From a virus (lineage: Duplodnaviria > Heunggongvirae > Uroviricota > Caudoviricetes): a DNA stretch of 36,857 bases. Shown here piece after piece: positions 1,140-22,712 of this stretch. The stretch covers positions 1 through 36,857 of IMG/VR virus record IMGVR_UViG_2690316068_000008. One strand, given 5' to 3'. A program made the translations under genes and the position numbers. Each line of letters starts with the position of its first letter. The stretch's first letter is position 1. The notes beneath the pieces are model-generated. The model was not told where the DNA came from and ran no database searches. It saw only the letters and a list, made by a program, of their open reading frames with translations.

Positions 1140-2657
1140 TTAATCAAATGATGTGGCCAGTTCAATTAATTCAATGTAATTATGTAAGGCATAAAAAGAT
1201 GTATTCAGTCCATTCTCTATAAGGGCTCCTTGCAAATACTTTATAGCTGTATCACCATCAATAGGGCCTTGTTGAGATTTAATCATTAGTGAATTTTGCC
1301 CATTGTTTTTTATACTTGATTTAAGTATGTTTATATTATTGATAAAATACAATGCAACATCTAAGTAATTTATTAATGTTAAATTTATTTTGGGCTCGAT
1401 CTGTGAGATGAATAATCTACTGCTCGCCGTTGTATAGATATAATTGACACCTATTCTTTGCTGATTTGTATCAAGATTTAATTCAAGGATGGCTTGAGAA
1501 ACACCTTTTAAATTGGAGCTTTGCTTTATCGAATCAGTGAAACGTTGTGCTGCATTTCTTCGACCAATTAGTCCATCTATAATTTGACGATCCTTATCAT
1601 ATATAATCATTAGCGAAATTATAAAAATATAATCTACTTTCTTTTTGACTAAATCAGATTTAAGAATGTCTATTAACCTTTCAGTATTTCGGATTGAGTC
1701 TCTTAGATTTAACCCAAATGCTTCAAATACGTTGGAAATATTTATTGAAAAGTCTTCTAATGTTGCGGTTAGTGGGTATGTTTTTGATGTGATATTTTCA
1801 AACTCGGTACCAATATAATCACCAACAACACCATTAATTAAATCTTTAAGTTCAGGTTGTTTTAAAGTAAATCTTCTATGAAAAAAACGGCCTAAATAGT
1901 CATTTGCGGAAAAATCATTACCGTAAACATTCTTGATTGAATGTTGTAATTGATCTGTGTCAGTAGCAATAATAAAGACAAAATTTTTAATGTCGAATAT
2001 ATGTTTAACAATCTCTAAAAGAGAAATTGCATAATCTGGCCTGCATCTGTCTAATTCATCTATAAAGATAAATATAGGACATGAAAAACTATTTTCATAT
2101 GCCAACCTAGACCATAACGTAAGTTCTTTTTTTAATACCTTAATGCTCTTCAGTTTTTCCTGGTGTTCCTTCAGCATTATTAATGAGGCTTCTTTGGCTA
2201 TATCACCTACGTTATCTACTCCTGCATAAGTCTTGATTAGGCCAGATATGATTTCAGGTAGAACACCTTTTGTAAAGCGTCCGATAGCATGGCCGCTTTG
2301 TATCAATCGAGCATCAAGTTTTCCTGCATATGTTTGCAATTGTTGTGACAAAGAAGAAAAAAGGGTTAAAAATGCATCATCAGAAAAGTCTTGCTTCCAG
2401 GCATCAATGTAAACGCATGGGTGTGCATCTTTTATTGAGTTATAAAATCTCTTTATGAAAAAACTTTTACCAGCTCCCCATTCTGCATTAAGGTTGATTA
2501 CCGTGTTGTTCTTTTGCCCCTTTTCCTTAAGATAAAAATATAGATATTCTGCATAGTGTCTCCGATTAAGTTTGTCTTTGGAAAGAATTTCCTCTTCGTC
2601 GTCTAATATAAAGGTAGTTTCTTCATCCCAGTTCCAATTACAATCACCACATTTCAC
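1140..2657 (-). CDS. KAP-family P-loop NTPase (cargo/moron, putative defence-associated)
   Basis: 505-aa ORF with Walker A-like AEWGAGKS and Walker B-like IFIFIDELDRCRPDY, typical of KAP NTPases. Apparent GTG start at 2657 with GGAGA upstream. AT-rich compared with the phage backbone. Confidence 0.65.
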   Translation of the reverse strand: MKCGDCNWNWDEETTFILDDEEEILSKDKLNRRHYAEYLYFYLKEKGQKNNTVINLNAEWGAGKSFFIKRFYNSIKDAHPCVYIDAWKQDFSDDAFLTLFSSLSQQLQTYAGKLDARLIQSGHAIGRFTKGVLPEIISGLIKTYAGVDNVGDIAKEASLIMLKEHQEKLKSIKVLKKELTLWSRLAYENSFSCPIFIFIDELDRCRPDYAISLLEIVKHIFDIKNFVFIIATDTDQLQHSIKNVYGNDFSANDYLGRFFHRRFTLKQPELKDLINGVVGDYIGTEFENITSKTYPLTATLEDFSINISNVFEAFGLNLRDSIRNTERLIDILKSDLVKKKVDYIFIISLMIIYDKDRQIIDGLIGRRNAAQRFTDSIKQSSNLKGVSQAILELNLDTNQQRIGVNYIYTTASSRLFISQIEPKINLTLINYLDVALYFINNINILKSSIKNNGQNSLMIKSQQGPIDGDTAIKYLQGALIENGLNTSFYALHNYIELIELATSFD

Positions 2658-2682: not shown

Positions 2683-3606
2683 TTAATGTAAACAACTTAT
2701 AATAACTTTTGCAATAAACTCAATGTCTGTAAGCGAACATTCAAAAGAGTGATTTTTGGATGAAATATAAACTCGTCCTTTAGGTAGTCGAGTTATCATT
2801 CTAAATGAATTCTCTCCATCAATATTTACTAGCCACTTACCATCATGTACATCTTTAAAACCCATTTCACATATTAATTCAGAGTCTTCGGTAGATACTA
2901 CGAATGCATTTTTTAAATTGGAAGGTAGAAAACATGGGTCAAATAAATATGAGCCATCATTTATTAACTTGCCATTGATTAATACTTTTTTCACTAATGT
3001 TAAAGTATCTTTATTTTTTGCGTTTTTCATTTCTCCTGTACCAAATGAAATCCATTCAATAGAATGGCCCGTTTCTATTGCACACTGCAAAACCCAGTCT
3101 GCAGGAAAAATGTCACGCATGTATCGTGTGGCTAATGTGCTTTTTGAAATACCTAGGTGATCAGCTAATGCTTGGCGCGTTTTGTAACCGTAAGCCTCGA
3201 CAATTCGTTCTATTGTTGCCTTACCCCCTCGGTTAAAATTCATGAGTTTTTCATTATCGAACTTTATAGTGGGAATGTATACTTCATTGCAAAGGCCATT
3301 AACGGCATGTTTTTCAGAATATTGCTCTGATGAAGGAGCAGTATCTGAACCAAGAACTAACCATTCAATTGATGCTCCTGTTTCTATGGAACATATAACA
3401 ACCCAATCTGCAGGAAAGGTATTACGTGCATATCTGTTGGCCATAGTACTTTGGGAAATACCTAGATGATTACATAATGCCTGTCGTGACTTGAAGCCAT
3501 AGGCTAGGAGTATACGCTCAATAACTTTTTGCCCTCCACGATTCTGCATAACTATTGCTTTCAGATCGTTTTTGATATGGCTAAATTTTAATTTTTGAGT
3601 TGACAT
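2683..3606 (-). CDS. CI-repressor paralog with two tandem N-terminal HTH domains and a CI-like C-terminal domain
   Basis: 307-aa ORF. Residues about 25-85 and 128-188 are near-duplicates (ERILLAYGFKSRQALCNHLGISQSTMANRY...ETGASIEWL versus ERIVEAYGYKTRQALADHLGISKSTLATRY...ETGHSIEWI). The C-terminal domain is paralogous to the C-terminus of the adjacent 191-aa repressor. Confidence 0.6.
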   Translation of the reverse strand: MSTQKLKFSHIKNDLKAIVMQNRGGQKVIERILLAYGFKSRQALCNHLGISQSTMANRYARNTFPADWVVICSIETGASIEWLVLGSDTAPSSEQYSEKHAVNGLCNEVYIPTIKFDNEKLMNFNRGGKATIERIVEAYGYKTRQALADHLGISKSTLATRYMRDIFPADWVLQCAIETGHSIEWISFGTGEMKNAKNKDTLTLVKKVLINGKLINDGSYLFDPCFLPSNLKNAFVVSTEDSELICEMGFKDVHDGKWLVNIDGENSFRMITRLPKGRVYISSKNHSFECSLTDIEFIAKVIISCLH

Positions 3607-3656: not shown

Positions 3657-4232
3657 TTACTCAAAGTACTTAACTGTTATGGTTATAATTTTTCCAATAA
3701 TTTCGATTTCTTCTTTTTTACATTCGAAAGCCCTATTTCCACCTTCAACTAAGATTCTTCCACCAGGTAAACGAGTGATATCGCGGATTGTTACTTCGGC
3801 ATCAATACTTATTACCCATTTACCGTCACGAATATCGTTAAACTCTTTATCGCAAATAAAAACGGAATTGTTATCGGTGATTACAAACGGATTTTTGAGC
3901 GTAGATGGTAGAAATTCTTTATCGAAAATATAAAAACCATCTTCCTGCAAGGTTCCATCAGATAATACATATTTAACGACTTCCATAGTATTTGTATTAC
4001 CTGAAGTTTGCTTTGAACCATGTCCGGTCGTGAGCCAGTTAAGCGAGGCGCCCGTTTCAAGTGCGCACTGGATTACCCATTCAGCAGGGAATGAGTCACG
4101 CATATAGCGTGTGGCGAGAGTACTTTTAGAGATTCCTAAGTGATCGCACAACGCCTGTCGAGTCTTGAAGCCATATGCTTCTACCATGCGCTCTATAGCG
4201 CCTCGTCCGCCTTTCTCCAAATTCATGGTCAC
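3657..4232 (-). CDS. cI: Immunity repressor, 186 CI-type (HTH N-domain plus oligomerisation C-domain)
   Basis: 191-aa ORF adjacent to the divergent early operon. N-terminal ERMVEAYGFKTRQALCDHLGISKSTLATRYMRD HTH-like segment. Length close to the 186 CI as I recall it. Start may be GTG at 4232 or ATG at 4226. Confidence 0.6.
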   Translation of the reverse strand: MTMNLEKGGRGAIERMVEAYGFKTRQALCDHLGISKSTLATRYMRDSFPAEWVIQCALETGASLNWLTTGHGSKQTSGNTNTMEVVKYVLSDGTLQEDGFYIFDKEFLPSTLKNPFVITDNNSVFICDKEFNDIRDGKWVISIDAEVTIRDITRLPGGRILVEGGNRAFECKKEEIEIIGKIITITVKYFE

Positions 4233-7260: not shown

Positions 7261-9671
7261 GTCATGACGATATGAGCAACTCTAGCGGCTTTAACGAGGC
7301 CGCTGCATCATTTTCATGGAACGGCCCGAAAAAGGCCATTAACCCTTATCTGGACCCGGCGGAATTTGCGCCGGAGTCTGCACTTTCAAACCTGATCACT
7401 CTGTATGCTGCCGATAACGAGCAGGAACAACTGCGCCGCGAGGCACTGAGTGAGCAGGTCTGGGAGCGTTATTTCTTTAATGAATCCCGTGATCCTGTCC
7501 AGCGCGAAATGGAGCAGGATAAGCTCATTAGCCGCGCAAAGCTTGCGCATGAGCAGCAGCTTTTTAACCCGGACATGGTCATTCTGGCAGATGTCAGCGC
7601 CCAGCCTACCCACATCAGCAAACCGCTGATGCAACGTATCGAATACTTCAGCAGCCTGGGCAGGCCAAAGGCTTATTCCCGCTATTTGCGTGAGACGATT
7701 AAGCCATGTCTGGAGCGACTGGATTGTGTACGCGACAGTCAGCTATCCGCTTCTTTCCGTTTTATGGCAAGCCATCAAGGGCTTGAGGGCCTGCTGATCC
7801 TGCCTGAAATGAGTCAGGATCAGGTAAAACGCCTGTCCACCCTGGTAGCTGCGCATATGAGCATGTGCCTTGATGCCGCTTGTGGCGATTTATATGCCAC
7901 CGATGACGTTAAGCCAGAAGAAATCCGCAAGACATGGGAAAAGGTGGCAGCGGAAACCCTGCGACTGGATGTTATCCCGCCTGCGTTTGAGCAACTCCGC
8001 CGGAAAAGAAACCGCCGCAAACCCGTGCCCTATGAACTCATACCGGGTTCGCTGGCACGTATGCTTTGCGCCGACTGGTGGTATCGAAAATTGTGGAAGA
8101 TGCGTTGCGAATGGCGGGAAGAGCAGTTGCGTGCTGTCTGCCTGGTCAGCAAAAAAGCATCTCCCTATGTCAGCTATGAAGCCGTGACGCATAAACGTGA
8201 GCAGCGCCGTAAGTCGCTGGAGTTTTTCCGTTCTCATGAACTGGTGAACGAAGACGGCGACACGCTGGATATGGAAGATGTGGTAAACGCCAGCAGCAGC
8301 AACCCGGCACATCGCCGCAATGAGATGATGGCCTGTGTTAAAGGTCTGGAGCTTATCGCAGAAATGCGTGGTGACTGCGCCGTTTTCTACACTATCACCT
8401 GTCCGTCACGTTTCCATTCCACGCTCAACAACGGCAGACCCAACCCGACCTGGACAAATGCGACGGTAAGACAAAGCAGCGATTATCTGGTCGGCATGTT
8501 TGCTGCATTTCGTAAGGCTATGCACAAAGCCGGGTTGCGCTGGTATGGCGTGCGGGTGGCTGAGCCGCACCATGACGGTACTGTGCACTGGCATCTCATG
8601 TGTTTCATGCGCAAAAAAGACCGCCGCGCCATTACTGCATTGTTGCGTAAGTTTGCCATCCGTGAAGACCGCGAGGAACTGGGTAATAACACTGGTCCAC
8701 GCTTTAAATCTGAGCTGATAAACCCACGCAAAGGAACACCGACAAGCTACATCGCGAAATACATCAGTAAGAACATTGACGGGCGTGGTCTGGCTGGCGA
8801 GATCAGCAAGGAAACGGGTAAATCCCTGCGTGATAATGCTGAATACGTTAATGCCTGGGCGTCTCTGCATCGTGTTCAGCAATTCCGCTTCTTTGGCATT
8901 CCGGGGCGTCAGGCTTACCGTGAACTGCGATTGCTGGCTGGTCAGGCGGCAAGGCAACAGGGGGACAAAAAAGCAGGTGCGCCGGTACTGGATAACCCGC
9001 GCCTTGATGCCATCCTGGCTGCTGCTGATGCAGGTTGTTTTGCCACCTACATCATGAAGCAGGGCGGCGTACTGGTTCCCCGCAAATATCACCTTATCAG
9101 AACAGCTTATGAAATTAACGAAGAGCCGACTGCTTATGGCGATCACGGTATTCGTATTTATGGCATCTGGTCACCCATTGTACAGGGCAAGATTTGCACT
9201 CATGCAGTGAAGTGGAAAATGGTTCGTAAGGCCGTTGACGTTCAGGAGGCGGCAGCCGACCAGGGCGCTTGCGCCCCTTGGACTCGTGGCAATAACTGTC
9301 CCCTTGCTGAAAATTTGTACCAACAAGGGAAAGACAAATCAGCTGATGGGGGCTCCAGAACGGACATTACCCGCATGGATGACAAGGAATTGCACGATTA
9401 CCTGCACAGTATGAGCAAAAAAGATCGCCGGGAGCTGGCAGCAAGGTTGCGCCTGGTGAAACCGAAACGGCGTAAAGACTACAAACAGCGAATTACAGAT
9501 CATCAGCATCAGCAGCTCGTCTATGAACTGAAGTCCAGAGGATTTGATGGCAGCGAGAAAGAAGTCGATTTGCTCCTTCGCGGTGGCAGTATTCCGTCAG
9601 GAGCAGGCTTGCGTATCTTCTATCGGAACCAGCGTTTGCGGGAAGATGATAAGTGGCGGAACCTGTATTAA
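7257..9671 (+). CDS. A: Replication initiation endonuclease gpA (rolling-circle initiator)
   Basis: 804-aa ORF, ATGA overlap with dam. Size and position match P2 gene A. Contains a histidine-rich [12 protein letters not shown] segment consistent with a rolling-circle initiator metal-binding motif. Confidence 0.8.
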
Positions 9672-9825: not shown

Positions 9826-10014
9826 ATGCAGGACTATTTTTTGGAGTCTTTGAAGCTCCAGCGCATTGATTTTTTTCTTAAGCTTGTAGCGGCTAGTGAG
9901 TGTAGTGATGAAGAGAAGGGGCTAGCTTTGCAGTGGGTTTCTGAACTAACAGATGAACTCATGGCAAAAATCAGAACCCACGAATACAACCGCTCAATGG
10001 ATGTCATCAGTTGA
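9826..10014 (+). CDS. Small hypothetical protein downstream of LexA box (possible Tum-like antirepressor component)
   Basis: 62-aa ORF with AGGAGG RBS 5 nt upstream of the ATG. Function inferred only from context. Confidence 0.35.
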   Translation: MQDYFLESLKLQRIDFFLKLVAASECSDEEKGLALQWVSELTDELMAKIRTHEYNRSMDVIS

Positions 10015-10024
10015 GGTGACTTTT

Positions 10025-10258
10025 ATGCGCATTGAAATAATGATCGATAAAGAGCAGAAGATTAGCCAGTCTATCCTGGACGCCCTTGAATCCGAGCTTT
10101 ACCGCAATCTGCGCCCCCTGTATCCCAAAACGGTAATTCGTATCCGCAAAGGTAGCTCTAACGGTGTGGAACTGACCGGACTGCAACTGGACGAAGAAAG
10201 AAAACAAGTGATGAAAATTATGCAGAAAGTGTGGGAAGACGACAGCTGGCTGCATTAA
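10025..10258 (+). CDS. DinI-like protein
   Basis: 78 aa from ATG 10025 (RBS GAGGTG): MRIEIMIDKEQKISQSILDALESELYRNLRPLYP...VWEDDSWL. Resembles E. coli DinI in length, MRIE start and acidic/Trp C-terminus. Confidence 0.65.
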   Translation: MRIEIMIDKEQKISQSILDALESELYRNLRPLYPKTVIRIRKGSSNGVELTGLQLDEERKQVMKIMQKVWEDDSWLH

Positions 10259-10632
10259 GAAACGTTGCTGGCGTCTGAACTTGCTTCTGGCGCCAGCAAG
10301 GTTGAACAACGAGCCGTGCGAGGCGTTAGCTCTGTGGTGCATGTCTATGCCGCATGAGATCGCATGATCGTTTGAGGATCGTTTTTGCTAAGGCCCGCCA
10401 GAACTGTCGGGCTTTTGCGTAGATCATGCAGGTGCATGAAAACCACTACATAAAGCGGGCAGGCGTGGCGGGGATACGAGCGCGCGCTAAGTCATATAAG
10501 AGTTATATATTGATTTGATTGCTGGACATGCATACAGTATCGCTCTATCATCTAATAAATCTTAGAGTATTTGACAATGTTTGGATAAAATAGAACCTAA
10601 CTTATTCATAATCCGCTAAACAGGGATGTCAG

Positions 10633-11547
10633 ATGCCATACCAATTGGTAGAGCTTAGCCCCGTAGCTAACGATCTTGAACAGTTAGGAACCAAAGAGAA
10701 GTTTTGGTTCTATTTCTCCGATGACACTGTAAATTTGCAGTTGTTTAAGTACTCTAGGCCAGGTACTGGCGAGCATTGGTCTGAAAAGTGTGCTGCTGAG
10801 TTATGTCATTTGCTTAACATTCCACATGCTAGCTATGATTTGGCGCGATACAATGGTCGATTCGGTGTGGTGACTCAGAATATCATTCCATCTGGTTTCC
10901 GGATGGTAATGGGAAATGAAGTGCTTCACAGTTCGACATTCGATTATCCTGGGCCTTTACAAGCCGGGGAAAAGCCGGTAAGGGTCAGAGAACACACTGT
11001 CACAAGGGTATTGGGTTGTTTAGATAGGGAATCTATCAAGCCTCCTCCGAGTGTATATGATCTAACCGGGCTAAATGCAGCAGATGTATTTTGTGGATAT
11101 TTGATGCTCGATGCACTTGTGAGTAATCAAGATCGCCATCATGAAAATTGGGCGATCATGCTTAACAATGAAACTGGTGAGCAGTTTTTGTGTCCAACAT
11201 ACGATCATGCCGCTAGTTTAGGAAGGGAGATGTTAGATGATGAGCGTAACGAACGGCTTAATACTAAAGATAAAAATCGACAAATCCCATGTTTTGTAAG
11301 AAAAGCTCGCTCTGAGCTATTCAAAGCAAAAACTGATAAAAAGCCCTTGCTGACCGTTGAAGCATTTCAACATGCAGTTGAAGGGAGAGTTGCCGCTCGC
11401 GACCATTGGTTAGGTAAGTTGAGCGTTTTAACAGAAGATTCCATTACAGATGTGTTTAACCAAGTGCCTTCATCGTGTATATCCGACAGTGCACGTAGAT
11501 TTGCAACGTTAATGGTAATGGAAAATCGCAGAAGGTTACTAGAATGA
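10633..11547 (+). CDS. HipA-like Ser/Thr kinase (short, kinase domain only; cargo gene 1)
   Basis: 304 aa. Motifs LGTKEKF, SNQDRHHENW and LCPTYDHA line up with HipA ATP-binding, catalytic-loop and Mg-binding motifs as I recall them. AT-rich; RBS AGGGA upstream. Confidence 0.6.
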   Translation: MPYQLVELSPVANDLEQLGTKEKFWFYFSDDTVNLQLFKYSRPGTGEHWSEKCAAELCHLLNIPHASYDLARYNGRFGVVTQNIIPSGFRMVMGNEVLHSSTFDYPGPLQAGEKPVRVREHTVTRVLGCLDRESIKPPPSVYDLTGLNAADVFCGYLMLDALVSNQDRHHENWAIMLNNETGEQFLCPTYDHAASLGREMLDDERNERLNTKDKNRQIPCFVRKARSELFKAKTDKKPLLTVEAFQHAVEGRVAARDHWLGKLSVLTEDSITDVFNQVPSSCISDSARRFATLMVMENRRRLLE

Positions 11548-12284
11548 CTAATACAAACTCCGTTTACGTCGCATGGCAGGCACCAGATACCAGAGACTGG
11601 CATGTTGTTGGTAACTTGCAAGAGCGCAAATCGGGGTATGTTTTCAGGTATACCAAAGGTGCTCTTAAATCTACTAAATTTACAAAGTTTAGCGGCATGA
11701 GTGATGTTCGTGAAACTTATGTTTCGGAAGAATTGTTTCCTCTTTTTAAAAATCGCCTTTTATCACCGAGACGTCCAGAGTATCCGAGTTTCATTAAATG
11801 GCTTGGATTTGAAGAAGATAAGGTAAATCCTATCGATATTCTTGCTCGCTCGGGAGGCTTACGAAGCACTGATCAGCTGCAGATTTTCAAAAAAATTGAT
11901 GTTGATTCTGATGGTAACTTTGAGCATTTTTTCTTCTTACATGGACTTGGTTACTTAAATAGCTTAGCTAATGCTCGTGTATCTGAATTGAAACCGGGGC
12001 AAATTTTGCGTCTTTGCTTGGATCTTCAAAATGAATACGATGGGGATGCTGTTGTCGTTCGTGCAGATAAACCAGCTGAAATCGTTGGTTACTGCCCTAG
12101 GTATTTAAGTAATGATATCAAGAAGATGTTATTGGATGATCCAAAATCAATCACTTTAACGGTCGAAAAGATTAGCGATGATGCTCCTCATAACTATCGG
12201 TTATTATGTAAATTATCAGGAGTACTAAGCCAAGCCTGTCAATCGACGCTGATTCCTCAGGATGAGTTTGAACCTATTGAGTAA
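11544..12284 (+). CDS. HipA N-terminal-subdomain-like (HipS-like) protein fused to a HIRAN-like C-terminal domain (cargo gene 2)
   Basis: 246 aa, ATGA overlap with gene 1. N-terminal segments VVGNLQERKSGYVFRY, LFPLFKNRLLSP and NPIDILARSGGLRS resemble the HipA N-subdomain. C-terminal NEYDGDAVVVRADKPAEIVGYCPRYLS resembles the HIRAN core. Confidence 0.5.
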   Translation: MTNTNSVYVAWQAPDTRDWHVVGNLQERKSGYVFRYTKGALKSTKFTKFSGMSDVRETYVSEELFPLFKNRLLSPRRPEYPSFIKWLGFEEDKVNPIDILARSGGLRSTDQLQIFKKIDVDSDGNFEHFFFLHGLGYLNSLANARVSELKPGQILRLCLDLQNEYDGDAVVVRADKPAEIVGYCPRYLSNDIKKMLLDDPKSITLTVEKISDDAPHNYRLLCKLSGVLSQACQSTLIPQDEFEPIE

Positions 12285-19863: not shown

Positions 19864-20257
19864 AGCAGTGCCTTATGTCCGCAATAACCCGGACAAACTG
19901 CATCTGTTTGTGGATAACGGTTCGCTGGTTGCCACGGGGGCCAGCTCCATGTCATGGGAGTACCGCTATACCCTGAACGTGGTGATAGAGGATTTCAGCG
20001 GCGACCAGAATCTGCTGATGGCCCCGGTTTTATTGTGGCTGCGGGATAACCAGCCCGATGCCATCAATAACCCGGCGTTACGGGAAAAGCTATTCACCTT
20101 TGAGGTGGATATTCTGCGCAACGATGTCTGTGATATCAGCCTTAACCTGCAACTGACGGAGCGTGTGCTGGTCAGCACTGACGGCAGTGTGTCGAGCGTT
20201 GAAGCTGTAGCAGAACCCGATGAACCTGAAGAAATGTGGACGGTGAAACGTGGCTGA
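19826..20257 (+). CDS. R: Tail completion protein gpR
   Basis: Probable GTG start at 19826 (AGGAG RBS). VNKPQSLRHALNKAVPYVRNNPDKLHLFVDNGSLVA resembles P2 gpR as recalled. Confidence 0.7.
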   Translation: MNKPQSLRHALNKAVPYVRNNPDKLHLFVDNGSLVATGASSMSWEYRYTLNVVIEDFSGDQNLLMAPVLLWLRDNQPDAINNPALREKLFTFEVDILRNDVCDISLNLQLTERVLVSTDGSVSSVEAVAEPDEPEEMWTVKRG

Positions 20258-20702
20258 ACTGCAGAAGGTGGACGACTGGCTGAGTGTCTTGCTGACGAAT
20301 CTGGAGCCAGCCGCAAGAAGCCGCATGATGCGTCAGCTGGCGCAGGAACTGCGCCGGACACAGCAGCAGAATATCAGGATGCAGCACAACCCTGACGGTA
20401 GCAGCTATGAACCGAGACGGGTAACAGCACGCAGCAAAAAGGGTCGCATCAAACGTCAGATGTTTACAAAGCTGCGCACCACCAAATACCTGAAAACTGC
20501 CGCCAGCGCCGATTCTGCCAGCGTGCAGTTTGAAGGTAAGGTGCAGCGCATTGCCCGCGTTCACCATTACGGCCTGCGTGATCGTGTAAGCCGTAATGGT
20601 CCGGAAGTGCGGTATGCAGAGCGGCGATTATTAGGTTTCAATAACGATATAATGTTGAAGTTAATTGATCTGTTAACTCGGCATTTAATTAATCCAAACT
20701 AA
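20250..20702 (+). CDS. S: Tail completion protein gpS
   Basis: 150 aa, apparent GTG start overlapping the R stop. Size matches P2 S. Confidence 0.7.
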   Translation: MAELQKVDDWLSVLLTNLEPAARSRMMRQLAQELRRTQQQNIRMQHNPDGSSYEPRRVTARSKKGRIKRQMFTKLRTTKYLKTAASADSASVQFEGKVQRIARVHHYGLRDRVSRNGPEVRYAERRLLGFNNDIMLKLIDLLTRHLINPN

Positions 20703-21894
20703 GTTTATATTTCTCAATGTGATTATTGATGTGATTAAAGAACATTCTTGGATTCCAACCTTTTGTGAGTTCAGAAATTAAATACTCATCAACCATGTCG
20801 AGTGCATAGTCTAAGGTCGGCTGTAAAAGTAGCCCCCCAATTGATCCAACTACTGGAGCTAAAGGAGATGTAATATTCGATGCCGCTAAGGCTCCAGTTA
20901 ACATCATGGCAATGCTCTTAGTCGAACGGCCTAAAAAGGAATCAAAAAATCCTTTTGAGTTTGATATGCTATCAATGTAATATTTTGAGATGTCACTCGC
21001 TGAACTGCTTTGTTCTGCTTCTTTTAACCATTTTCTGAATTTTTTAGCATGACGATCATTTCTGAGCCTCATGATGTCATTCATTGGTAATCCCATTTCA
21101 ATAAATGATTTACGTAAGTCAGGGAAGTTTTCAATGAGTGAAATTTGTTTGAATATCTCATTCTTATCAATTGTAATTAATGCTTGGCTGATAATTGCAC
21201 TCACATTGTCTGTTATGTGGGGGCGAGCTTTTTTATTAACGAGATATTTAAAGTTGAACAGTTCTTCTGCAACTTTTCCTAACTTTTTTTTATCGGTAAG
21301 ACTCAAATCTGTTAATTTCTCTTTAGTTAAATCGATTCCCAACTGGTTAAGTTTACCACTATTCAAAGCTGATATTGTCATGTCAACACAGTCTTTTTCT
21401 AAACCTTTGGGAATGTCTAAGTAGTTATCTCTCAGTTTTTTAATAAGATTTCTTTTTTCACCAGGTTTAAGACCTTTTCTTAATACGCTGAGCCCAGTTG
21501 AGATCGACTCCTCAGGGTCCGTATGTACGGTACTATTAAATCTCATGCTAACTAATGGAAGAGTTCCAGGTATCGGAGATGAAATGTATCCAACATTGGC
21601 AGTCCATAATGAAAAACTAAGAGCCTCTTGGTCAATTAATCTCTCAACATCATATAGGCCTATCTCATTAACCAGAAAAGCAAGTGGAACGTTTTCTCCA
21701 TATACTTTGAAGTTTAATTTTTCATTTAAAATAAAACCCTCAAATAGCTTTGATCTAATATTTTGAAGTTTTTTAGGTTGATCTATTATGTCTTGCTTCG
21801 TGAGCTGTGTTTCGCCAATCATAATATATTTTCGGCAGTAATCGTTTAGTTCTGTATCAAATAAAGCATTCGATATATCTATTTTTTTTGACAT
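20689..21894 (-). CDS. Hypothetical 401-aa cargo (moron) protein with C-terminal hydrophobic segment
   Basis: Long AT-rich ORF on the opposite strand between S and V, ATG at 21894. C-terminal stretch SIAMMLTGALAASNITSPLAPVVGSIGGLLLQ is hydrophobic. No recognisable catalytic motif. Confidence 0.5.
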   Translation of the reverse strand: MSKKIDISNALFDTELNDYCRKYIMIGETQLTKQDIIDQPKKLQNIRSKLFEGFILNEKLNFKVYGENVPLAFLVNEIGLYDVERLIDQEALSFSLWTANVGYISSPIPGTLPLVSMRFNSTVHTDPEESISTGLSVLRKGLKPGEKRNLIKKLRDNYLDIPKGLEKDCVDMTISALNSGKLNQLGIDLTKEKLTDLSLTDKKKLGKVAEELFNFKYLVNKKARPHITDNVSAIISQALITIDKNEIFKQISLIENFPDLRKSFIEMGLPMNDIMRLRNDRHAKKFRKWLKEAEQSSSASDISKYYIDSISNSKGFFDSFLGRSTKSIAMMLTGALAASNITSPLAPVVGSIGGLLLQPTLDYALDMVDEYLISELTKGWNPRMFFNHINNHIEKYKLSLD

Positions 21895-22069
21895 CTTATG
21901 ATCCTGTTATCCTTGTGAGGACACCCTAGAGTAATAGTGAATTTATAAATACACAGCGGCATAAATTAGATCTTTTAAGATTTTTTTTCAATCTATAAAT
22001 ATATATAAGTGAAAAGTGATTTTTTGACTGTGAGGGCGGCAAAAGGTGTGGGACGACTTTAAAAGTCAT

Positions 22070-22087
22070 TGTGCTATTGATTACACA
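22070..22087. promoter_or_regulatory. Ogr/Delta-type late-promoter activator site (TGT-N12-ACA) upstream of V
   Basis: TGTgctattgattacACA about 50 bp upstream of the V start. Confidence 0.4.
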
Positions 22088-22133
22088 AGCTTGCGACCTA
22101 TCCAGGTGACTCCTGGAAAGACATTCTATAGGC

Positions 22134-22712
22134 ATGAACGCACAACTAACAGAAATCATGCGCCTTATCACCAACCTAATCCGCACTGGTGTAGTCACCG
22201 ACGTGGACCGGGAGAACTGGCTTTGTCGGGTGAAAACGGGCGAGCTTGAAACTAACTGGATCAGCTGGCTGACGCTGCGTGCAGGGAATGCCAGGACATG
22301 GTGGCGACCATCGGAAGGTGAGCAGGTGGTGGTGCTGAGCATGGGCGGCAATCTGGAAACCGCGTTTGCGCTGCCCGCCATCTATTCGAATCAGTTCGCG
22401 CCACCGTCGACGTCGGCGGACGCCTGCGTGACAGAACATCCTGACGGTGGCTGGTTTGAATACGAACCCGCCACCGGGCGCTGGTATGTCAGAGGCATCA
22501 AATCAATGGTCATTGAGGCCGCTGACAACATCACCATGAAAACCAGTGAGTTTGTACTGGAGGCTGACCGCACGCGCATTAACAGCGAAGTGGTGATCAA
22601 TGGTGGCATTACCCAGGGCGGCGGAGCGATGAGTTCTAACGGGATCGTGGTTGATGCGCATCAGCATACTGGCGTCCTGAAAGGCGGCGATACCACCGGA
22701 GGCCCGGTATGA
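22134..22712 (+). CDS. V: Baseplate spike/assembly protein gpV
   Basis: 192 aa, first gene of the V-W-J-I-H-G operon. Size and position as for P2 V. Confidence 0.8.
   Translation: MNAQLTEIMRLITNLIRTGVVTDVDRENWLCRVKTGELETNWISWLTLRAGNARTWWRPSEGEQVVVLSMGGNLETAFALPAIYSNQFAPPSTSADACVTEHPDGGWFEYEPATGRWYVRGIKSMVIEAADNITMKTSEFVLEADRTRINSEVVINGGITQGGGAMSSNGIVVDAHQHTGVLKGGDTTGGPV

Follow-up and report, generated by a model that had tools for sequence, protein, structure and literature searches.

What is an AT-rich gene doing in antisense orientation between two tail genes of a P2-like prophage? The question is raised by IMG/VR virus record IMGVR_UViG_2690316068_000008, of which positions 1 to 36,857 were analysed (all 36,857 nucleotides (nt), here called the window). 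The window holds a P2/186-like prophage of Escherichia coli, which in sister strains is inserted between rcdA and ybjL. Between its tail genes S and V lies an open reading frame (ORF) on the minus strand, at 20689..21894, which we refer to as the cargo gene. It is a genuine, conserved single gene of foreign origin and a mobile one; it moves as part of a defined cassette and is found in slots that defence genes also use. The reading that we favour, with a probability of roughly 0.45, is that it may be a new stand-alone candidate defence gene, probably of the abortive-infection type, that benefits the lysogen.

The cargo gene and its cassette

The cargo ORF is 1,206 nt long, begins with ATG and encodes a protein of 401 amino acids that corresponds to the RefSeq hypothetical protein WP_060588806.1. 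A Shine-Dalgarno sequence, AGGA, can be read on the minus strand at 21902..21905, 7 nt 5' of the start codon. On the left is the conserved body of the tail-completion gene S (20250..20623, plus strand; PF05069 Phage_tail_S, E 5e-40) and on the right the baseplate spike gene V (22134..22712, plus strand; PF04717 and PF18946 (Apex)); both belong to the phage backbone and form the recombination flanks. The G+C content (GC) of the ORF is 0.341, against 0.57 in S (20250-20623) and 0.572 in V, and at the base composition of the ORF a stop-free run of 401 codons would arise by chance with a probability of about 1e-14. Gene S as a whole (20250-20702) stops at 20702 and the stop codon of the ORF occupies 20689-20691, giving a convergent overlap of 14 nt, while 239 nt of intergenic DNA (21895-22133) separate the ORF from V. 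An earlier note, made from the letters of the window, had described a single long and very AT-rich minus-strand ORF between gpS and gpV that overlaps the last S codons convergently, and in all of these points its description is confirmed.

The extent of the foreign DNA was defined by alignment to a sister prophage with an empty S-V junction. The homology of 94-96% between the two stops at 20623 (94% nucleotide identity through this position) and restarts exactly at the ATG of V at 22134 (96% identity from there on). The replaceable segment is thus 20624..22133, 1,510 nt with a GC of 0.342, and it comprises the final 26 S codons, the cargo gene and the complete region 5' to V. Its start had been placed at 20640 in the earlier note; the true start is at 20624 and takes in the end of S. 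Homology to the empty version of the junction, and to versions that carry AIPR or TIR genes, ends at 20617-20650. The cassette-borne 3' end of S (20624..20702, plus strand, GC 0.28) has a different sequence in each type of cassette, yet the varying C-termini retain an LLG-x-N-(D/E) pattern. In these alignments, exchange of cargo at the S-V junction is also an exchange of the S C-terminus and of the V promoter region.

The right part of the cassette begins with AT-rich DNA 5' to the ORF (21895..22030, GC 0.28), the presumed location of a promoter for the cargo gene. Further on, a TGT-N12-ACA dyad at 22070..22087 (plus strand), 46 nt before the V ATG, is the predicted Ogr/B-type late activator site of the V-operon promoter. 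The empty site has a dyad of different sequence at an equal distance (46 nt) from V, the dyad lies 46-48 nt before the V ATG in related cassettes of Pantoea, Raoultella and Erwinia, and further dyads precede the late operons O/P and FI. In the GenBank record of P2 the order is S, the O-operon terminator, orf30 (complement, 'nonessential'), the pV activator binding site (10239-10266) and V, and in P2 as in the window the dyad is centred 55.5 nt before V. Because the position of the dyad matches the annotated P2 geometry and its spacing is conserved, an intergenic V late promoter is well supported. The earlier note had described about 240 bp of AT-rich non-coding DNA carrying this promoter; the length and the promoter hold, but strong AT-richness is limited to 21895-22030, and 22031-22133 has a GC of 0.47. 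The P2 record also sets the start of V-operon transcription at the first coding base of V, 10308 (L040 1740-1809), which would imply a leaderless or near-leaderless V mRNA or else a mis-set V start codon.

Alternative cargo at the S-V site

Of 5,426 complete E. coli genomes, 10 carry the exact DNA, in copies at least 99.9% identical that are all annotated 'hypothetical protein'. The S..V backbone itself was found in 1,051 E. coli genomes, so that about 99% of such prophages are without the cargo gene. When an evenly spaced sample of 40 rows from 1,057 junction records was inspected, somewhat more than half of the junctions were empty and the remainder held one gene, nearly always antisense. 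A comparison of S-V junctions had been suggested as a check; among these E. coli prophages the junction is empty or differently filled in most.

Seven alternative cargo genes were examined, four of which match known or candidate defence families: an AIPR protein matching PADLOC AbiU (1.7e-24), a 583-amino-acid protein matching ApeA (1.8e-12), a TIR protein (PDC-S66/spbK) and an FRG protein matching PDC-S15 (8.5e-32). The others are a DUF6216 protein and two proteins that belong to no known family. This agrees with Moura de Sousa et al. 2026 (PMC13586616), according to whom a hotspot in the tail genes of P2, downstream of GpL, accounts for 16% of its defence systems. The orf30 position is one of three regions that commonly hold foreign genes in P2-like phages (PMC3091744; PMC6823313), and these papers and the P2 record bear out the statement in the earlier note that the junction is a site of variable cargo with orf30 in P2. 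By its position between S and V, its variable presence and its deviant GC, the gene in the window has the features of S-V junction cargo. That it was acquired horizontally as a single gene, as had been proposed, is upheld by its GC of 0.34 against 0.57, by its absence from most prophages of the same backbone and by the lack of a conserved partner. As judged from these comparisons, the S-V junction behaves as a genuine site of cassette exchange whose breakpoints are fixed, and in sister phages it holds known defence genes. Homology between the cargo of the window and other S-V cargo was considered and rejected, as P2 Orf30, the DUF6216 protein and the two S-V proteins of no known family are not related to it.

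A widespread protein family

Searches of Pfam, NCBIfam, PHROGs and PADLOC with the 401-amino-acid protein returned nothing better than E 0.037, the best PHROG match being no better than E 0.17. No copy was found by tblastn in 50,697 deposited phage genomes, no relatives were found among PDB sequences by phmmer or with the family profile, and the AlphaFold model had no fold match in PDB or BFVD. Profile searches and structure comparison thus agree with the first impression that the protein has no recognisable motif. The possibility that it is a conserved structural component was rejected, given that it has no PHROG match and no copy in the phage records and is absent from most sister prophages.

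Relatives of the protein are numerous among bacteria. A set of 69 homolog clusters at 25-70% identity was collected, and an exhaustive profile search gave 1,117 representative clusters at E<=1e-3, 181 of them at E<=1e-30. Nearly all members are 380-430 amino acids long and match end to end, in a single architecture of about 400 residues. Clusters formed at 50% identity extend from Enterobacterales to Moorella and Campylobacterota with a patchy taxonomic distribution, and 14 positions are invariant in the family alignment. A search with the C-terminal module returned fragments or split copies only and no new fusion architectures, and intact copies dominate (163 + 21 contigs). When 53 aligned members were searched against Pfam and PADLOC, there was scattered noise from single members together with faint echoes of C19orf12 and DUF6861. 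By all these sequence criteria the protein belongs to a genuine, widespread and so far undescribed family.

Genomic contexts of the homologs

An all-against-all comparison of neighbours within 6 kb at 20 loci detected no conserved partner gene, the only shared neighbours being phage structural genes or the product of local synteny. The lack of a conserved neighbour indicates a stand-alone, single-gene unit; in the same 20 loci there was no conserved adjacent partner of the kind that marks a toxin-immunity or toxin-antitoxin module. In 24 of 24 loci the GC of the gene is below that of its flanks, by up to 0.23.

Many of the loci in which homologs are found are associated with mobile elements, and some lie close to defence genes. 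In Pantoea (56% identity), Raoultella, Erwinia and Citrobacter pasteurii the gene is at the S-V junction of P2-like prophages, in antisense orientation as in the window. In Rahnella sp. PD12R (L043, gene 8001-9185) it is at the end of a 186-like prophage, after CI and a 208-amino-acid gene to which no function is assigned; no integrase was called nearby. The Klebsiella copies (L003-L006; gene 10001-11197 in L003) lie in an integrase/AlpA/DUF927 island at smpB, directly beside the Septu genes PtuA/PtuB. An Aeromonas copy is in an integrase/VapE island, one in Vibrio vulnificus is in a cassette-like array of small co-oriented genes, and one on a metagenomic contig is next to an insertion sequence and an RHS protein. 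The Moorella copy is upstream of a type III restriction-modification (R-M) system and a Phd/PIN pair; its coordinates do not translate exactly to the query, which makes its identity value unreliable, and it is the annotation of its neighbourhood that is used here. The 'Leifsonia' locus (L023) is not counted as actinobacterial, since its contig GC of 0.375 is implausible and it is probably contaminant or mislabelled. Overall, association with defence is positive in many loci (the S-V slot, Septu, type III R-M with the toxin-antitoxin pair, the integrase/VapE islands) and neutral in several.

The copy in the Klebsiella island shares 59-69% identity with the S-V copies of Raoultella, Erwinia and Citrobacter, and is closer to them than they are to the E. 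coli/Pantoea pair. This grouping indicates that the gene has moved between P2-like phages and a satellite-type island. Gene exchange between P2 and P4 is very rare, according to a 2026 NAR study.

Protein architecture

An AlphaFold2 model built with 53 sequences has a mean predicted local distance difference test score (pLDDT) of 82.6 and a predicted template modelling score (pTM) of 0.78, and is composed of an N-terminal alpha/beta and helical domain, a helical middle and a C-terminal region. The N-terminal domain (residues 1-195; 21310..21894, minus strand, as for all segments given here) is the best-conserved core, with pLDDT mostly 86-96, and we propose from the model that it may be a sensor or enzymatic domain. 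Its conserved residues are E52, K63, G66-E67-N68, F94, W97, D126-P127-E128-x-S130, K153, Y158 and S175. The helical region that follows (residues 196-320; 20935..21309) has an invariant basic motif, R278..R287-x-W289 (KFRKWL), and Y306; G322 is also among the invariant or near-invariant residues.

Residues 321-358 (20821..20934) make up a hydrophobic segment rich in Gly, Ala and Ser that resembles a glycine zipper in hydropathy and pattern. It is followed by residues 359-386 (20737..20820), an acidic amphipathic helix (D366, D369, E370) and then K-G-W-x-P-R/K-x-F. Conservation peaks in this last segment, where mean column identity reaches 0.68 and exceeds that of every other segment, and at residues 61-135 (0.64). 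Within it the K-G-W-x-P motif is at 378-382, and D369, G379, W380 and P382 are invariant in the family. The model is poorly defined in part of this region, with pLDDT <50 for residues 338-369.

The zipper is a property of the family rather than of the one protein: [GAS]xxx[GAS]xxx[GAS] is found in 52 of 53 members and a GxxxG-type pattern in 46 of 53, and one member has been named 'glycine zipper family protein' by NCBI. Sub-threshold matches were to Gly-zipper_Omp in one member and to C19orf12-like in three. The window protein itself matches none of the Pfam glycine-zipper families, and the best member reached 17.9 bits against a cut-off of 25 when 10 longer or divergent relatives were scanned. 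The maximum mean Kyte-Doolittle hydropathy over 19 residues is 1.30, within residues ~325-358, and the family mean is 1.43 (range 1.01-1.79); a mean of >=1.6 over a stretch of about 19 residues was taken as the mark of an integral membrane protein. The hydrophobic Gly/Ala-rich C-terminal stretch that had earlier been read as a sign of membrane association is thus real and its zipper conserved, but it falls short of a canonical transmembrane helix. Its conservation suggests a membrane-acting effector, and we propose that residues 321-358 may form a membrane-inserting hairpin.

Expression of the cargo gene

The suggestion that the ORF is expressed from its own promoter found no support, as there is no convincing sigma-70 promoter upstream of it, the only matches being weak sigma-70-like sequences (8/12) on the minus strand around 21998-22028. 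In P2 the annotated O-operon terminator, which is rho-independent, lies between S and orf30, whereas in the window the ORF overlaps S and 20700-20760 has no site that resembles a terminator. Transcription of the late O operon may therefore read antisense into the cargo gene. The start codon of the cargo gene is only about 15-20 nt beyond the pV activator dyad in the cassettes of Pantoea, Raoultella and Erwinia (L002 ~9921-10001; L008 ~7914-8001; L012 ~7968-8001), and because of this short distance the cargo promoter must overlap the late promoter there. Such an overlap could tie expression of the cargo in these cassettes to the late switch of the phage. The arrangement in the window is looser, the cargo start and the dyad being 175 nt apart with a stretch of GC 0.28 between them. 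It is speculative that antisense read-through and promoter proximity together would let a prophage silence the cargo gene in its own lytic cycle.

A candidate anti-phage defence gene

Three lines of evidence point to the function of the gene: allelic replacement by defence-type genes at the same site, defence-type neighbourhoods reached independently by its homologs, and the other cargo of the prophage, both of whose remaining cargo sites hold PADLOC candidates. From these, anti-phage defence is rather probable, and, if the gene is defensive, an abortive mechanism with a membrane effector would have an even chance or slightly better. As a mechanism, we envisage that the lysogen would make the protein in a soluble or peripheral cytoplasmic form, in which the conserved N-terminal alpha/beta-helical domain would sense an infecting phage. 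Activation would then free the C-terminal module, made up of the basic helix (KFRKWL), the hairpin of the glycine zipper and the acidic helix that bears KGWxPR; by insertion or oligomerisation in the inner membrane this module would collapse the membrane potential, so that infection would be aborted before progeny are released. A self-contained protein that is both sensor and effector fits the absence of a partner gene. A more specific form of this proposal, which we regard as doubtful, is an undescribed single-protein immune family whose glycine-zipper hairpin would be masked until a phage is sensed and then act as a conditional pore, with expression perhaps wired to the late switch; in that case a prophage could silence its own suicide gene on going lytic. 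The earlier note had listed abortive infection, superinfection exclusion and a virulence-related factor as possible functions. Defence fits best, as an unproven function, with the AbiU, ApeA, TIR and PDC-S15 alternates and the Septu and R-M neighbours; no evidence for virulence was obtained.

Several observations weigh against a membrane-acting defence protein. The hydropathy maximum does not reach the value usually required of a transmembrane helix, and glycine-rich segments also occur in soluble proteins. No sigma-70 promoter was found upstream of the ORF at the stricter threshold. Against PADLOC-DB v2.0.0 (5,027 models including the PDC candidates) the protein matched 0 families at E<=1, and the PADLOC search of the 53 aligned members gave no family common to more than one. 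Several homologs are in ordinary chromosomal surroundings; in Albidiferax the neighbours are an ABC transporter on one side and EPSP synthase on the other, and in Pseudomonas an AraC regulator and acyl-CoA genes lie beside the gene. The gene is split into ORFs of 204 (N-terminal) and 171 (C-terminal) amino acids in at least one E. coli lineage (966,718-bp contig; P0219, P0244), and a truncated copy of 236 amino acids is present on another E. coli contig; these copies look like sporadic pseudogenisation or sequencing errors. The accession and the conserved peptide motifs are absent from the text and supplements of Rousset 2022, Vassallo 2022 and DefensePredictor, other relevant supplements being outside the scope of this search. 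Moreover, functions other than defence have been assigned to roughly a quarter of the cargo in P2 hotspots (Rousset 2022), and guilt by location is an argument that is only probabilistic.

A lysogen could also be protected while it survives, if association with the inner membrane through the glycine zipper were to block genome entry or an early step at the envelope. Such superinfection exclusion would account for the conserved membrane-type segment and for a prophage cargo gene antisense to the late genes, as is expected of a function expressed in the lysogen, and the mobile-element contexts serve it equally well. We nevertheless consider it improbable, as most of the exclusion proteins known are lipoproteins or integral membrane proteins of small size, whereas this protein has 401 residues, a large, well-folded and conserved N-terminal domain of cytoplasmic type, no signal peptide and no strong transmembrane helix; homologs in the Gram-positive Moorella and in bacteria with very different envelopes also argue against an envelope-specific block. 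Glycine zippers are typical of pore-forming toxins, and a membrane-active toxin or another factor of host fitness (in interbacterial competition, lysogenic conversion or virulence) would be compatible with the PAAR and amidase genes near one Pseudomonas homolog, with the RHS protein near the metagenomic copy, and with the non-defensive part of P2 hotspot cargo (Rousset 2022). However, no signal peptide, secretion-associated domain or conserved immunity neighbour was detected, none of the approximately 150 relatives listed, all about 400 amino acids long, is fused to PAAR, VgrG or Rhs, proximity to PAAR or RHS is seen in only 2 of about 27 loci, and nothing links the family to a pathogen-specific distribution. 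This second alternative thus appears about as unlikely as exclusion. The narrower idea of a type VI secretion effector, which arose from the one PAAR-adjacent Pseudomonas locus, was rejected, as that neighbourhood is not conserved.

A role in the service of the phage itself, as counter-defence or as an accessory in lysis or in tail or virion morphogenesis, is suggested by the location of the ORF within the tail and lysis gene cluster and by a cassette that also brings the S C-terminus and the V promoter, and anti-defence genes are known in some P2-like phages (PMC13586616). We judge it very unlikely. With about 99% of prophages of the same backbone lacking the gene and most junctions empty, morphogenesis does not require the ORF; its P2 equivalent, orf30, carries the annotation non-essential, the ORF is antisense to the late operons, its homologs occur outside phages (in chromosomal islands, beside R-M genes, in the Septu-bearing island), and neither PHROGs nor the deposited phage genomes contain it. 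The occasional split or truncated copies and the missing promoter might also be taken to mean that the ORF is a decaying or functionless hitch-hiker that moves with the S tail and V promoter cassette. This can hardly be so, for the full-length architecture and its invariant residues are kept across the 1,117 clusters, at identities as low as about 25%, the ORF stays open in DNA of 34% GC where chance would allow it only at about 1e-14, and intact copies are in the majority.

Comparison with known systems

P2 orf30 (AAD03281.1) has the same layout as the window, with S, a single antisense cargo gene, the pV activator site and V, and is likewise AT-rich, non-essential and regarded as horizontally acquired. 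The two proteins are not homologous (hhalign probability 1.4%, E 0.036, 35 columns), and Orf30 is a positional analogue of 261 rather than 401 amino acids, also of no known function. The alternates of the sister prophages (AbiU/AIPR, ApeA, TIR, FRG, DUF6216) are single genes that use the same slot and breakpoints, all but TIR are antisense, and in each cassette, as in the window, the S tail and the region 5' to V come with the cargo. They have no sequence relation to the family, and those of defence type carry nuclease, NADase or Abi domains, of which the window protein has none.

Lambda RexB, the transmembrane effectors of CBASS and Pycsar, the two-transmembrane-helix protein of retron Ec48 and the Hailong channel resemble the protein in its proposed membrane insertion or pore formation and loss of potential. 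They differ from it in having clear transmembrane helices and a separate partner that senses infection or generates the signal, in place of a marginal segment and no partner, and no homology to membrane-disrupting abortive-infection effectors was detected in the PADLOC searches. Gly-zipper_Omp (PF13488) and C19orf12-like (PF20721) share with it a GxxxG-type zipper of small residues over about 35 positions; the zipper makes up <10% of the window protein, however, and its other ~360 residues match nothing. The P2 morons old, tin and fun(Z) are also AT-rich prophage cargo in fixed variable sites and protect the lysogen (Rousset 2022; iLund4u preprint), but they occupy other sites (gpA-gpQ, the Z region), encode unrelated proteins and have experimentally proven phenotypes. 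The closest known system is thus P2 orf30 by position, the S-V alternates with old, tin and fun(Z) by presumed role, and the membrane-disrupting abortive-infection effectors by proposed mechanism.

Other cargo of the prophage

From left to right the prophage carries the integrase, CI-type repressors, CII/Fil, gpA, portal and terminase, capsid, lysis and tail genes and ogr. One of its two other cargo sites, between the integrase gene (1-1053) and the CI repressor genes, holds a KAP-family P-loop NTPase of 505 amino acids (1140-2657, minus strand, GC ~0.28-0.37) that matches PDC-S20 (6.7e-78) and, more weakly, PifA and QatA. At the other, the gpA-portal hotspot, a two-gene operon on the plus strand matches the PADLOC candidates PDC-M03A (10633-11547; 2.1e-122), with weak likeness to a HipA_C-like kinase, and PDC-M03B (11544-12284; 3.4e-93), which has a HIRAN domain; an ORF of 111 amino acids to which no family is assigned (10007-10342, minus strand) is also found there. 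In the sister prophage of strain AR_452 the PDC-M03 pair is replaced by a TIGR02391-family protein. The immunity region has two tandem CI-type repressor genes on the minus strand (2683-3606 and 3657-4232). The longer product (307 amino acids) has two Phage_CI_repr helix-turn-helix stretches and one C-terminal domain, and the shorter (191 amino acids) is a standard CI, an arrangement that looks like a duplication or fusion.

Implications

Few sources have been as rich in new bacterial immune systems as P2-like prophages with their satellites, but attention has so far been on the gpA-gpQ and Z/fun sites. The joint movement of S tail, cargo and V promoter offers a simple rule for mining the S-V hotspot as well. 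The finding is not so much a surprise as a candidate that is well delimited and testable, and dissection of the protein is made easy by its clear layout, in which a glycine-zipper tail follows a conserved N-terminal domain. Should the family prove defensive, the catalogue would gain a single-gene system and probably also a fold that is new to it, and about a thousand 'hypothetical' clusters across bacteria would be flagged as immune genes.

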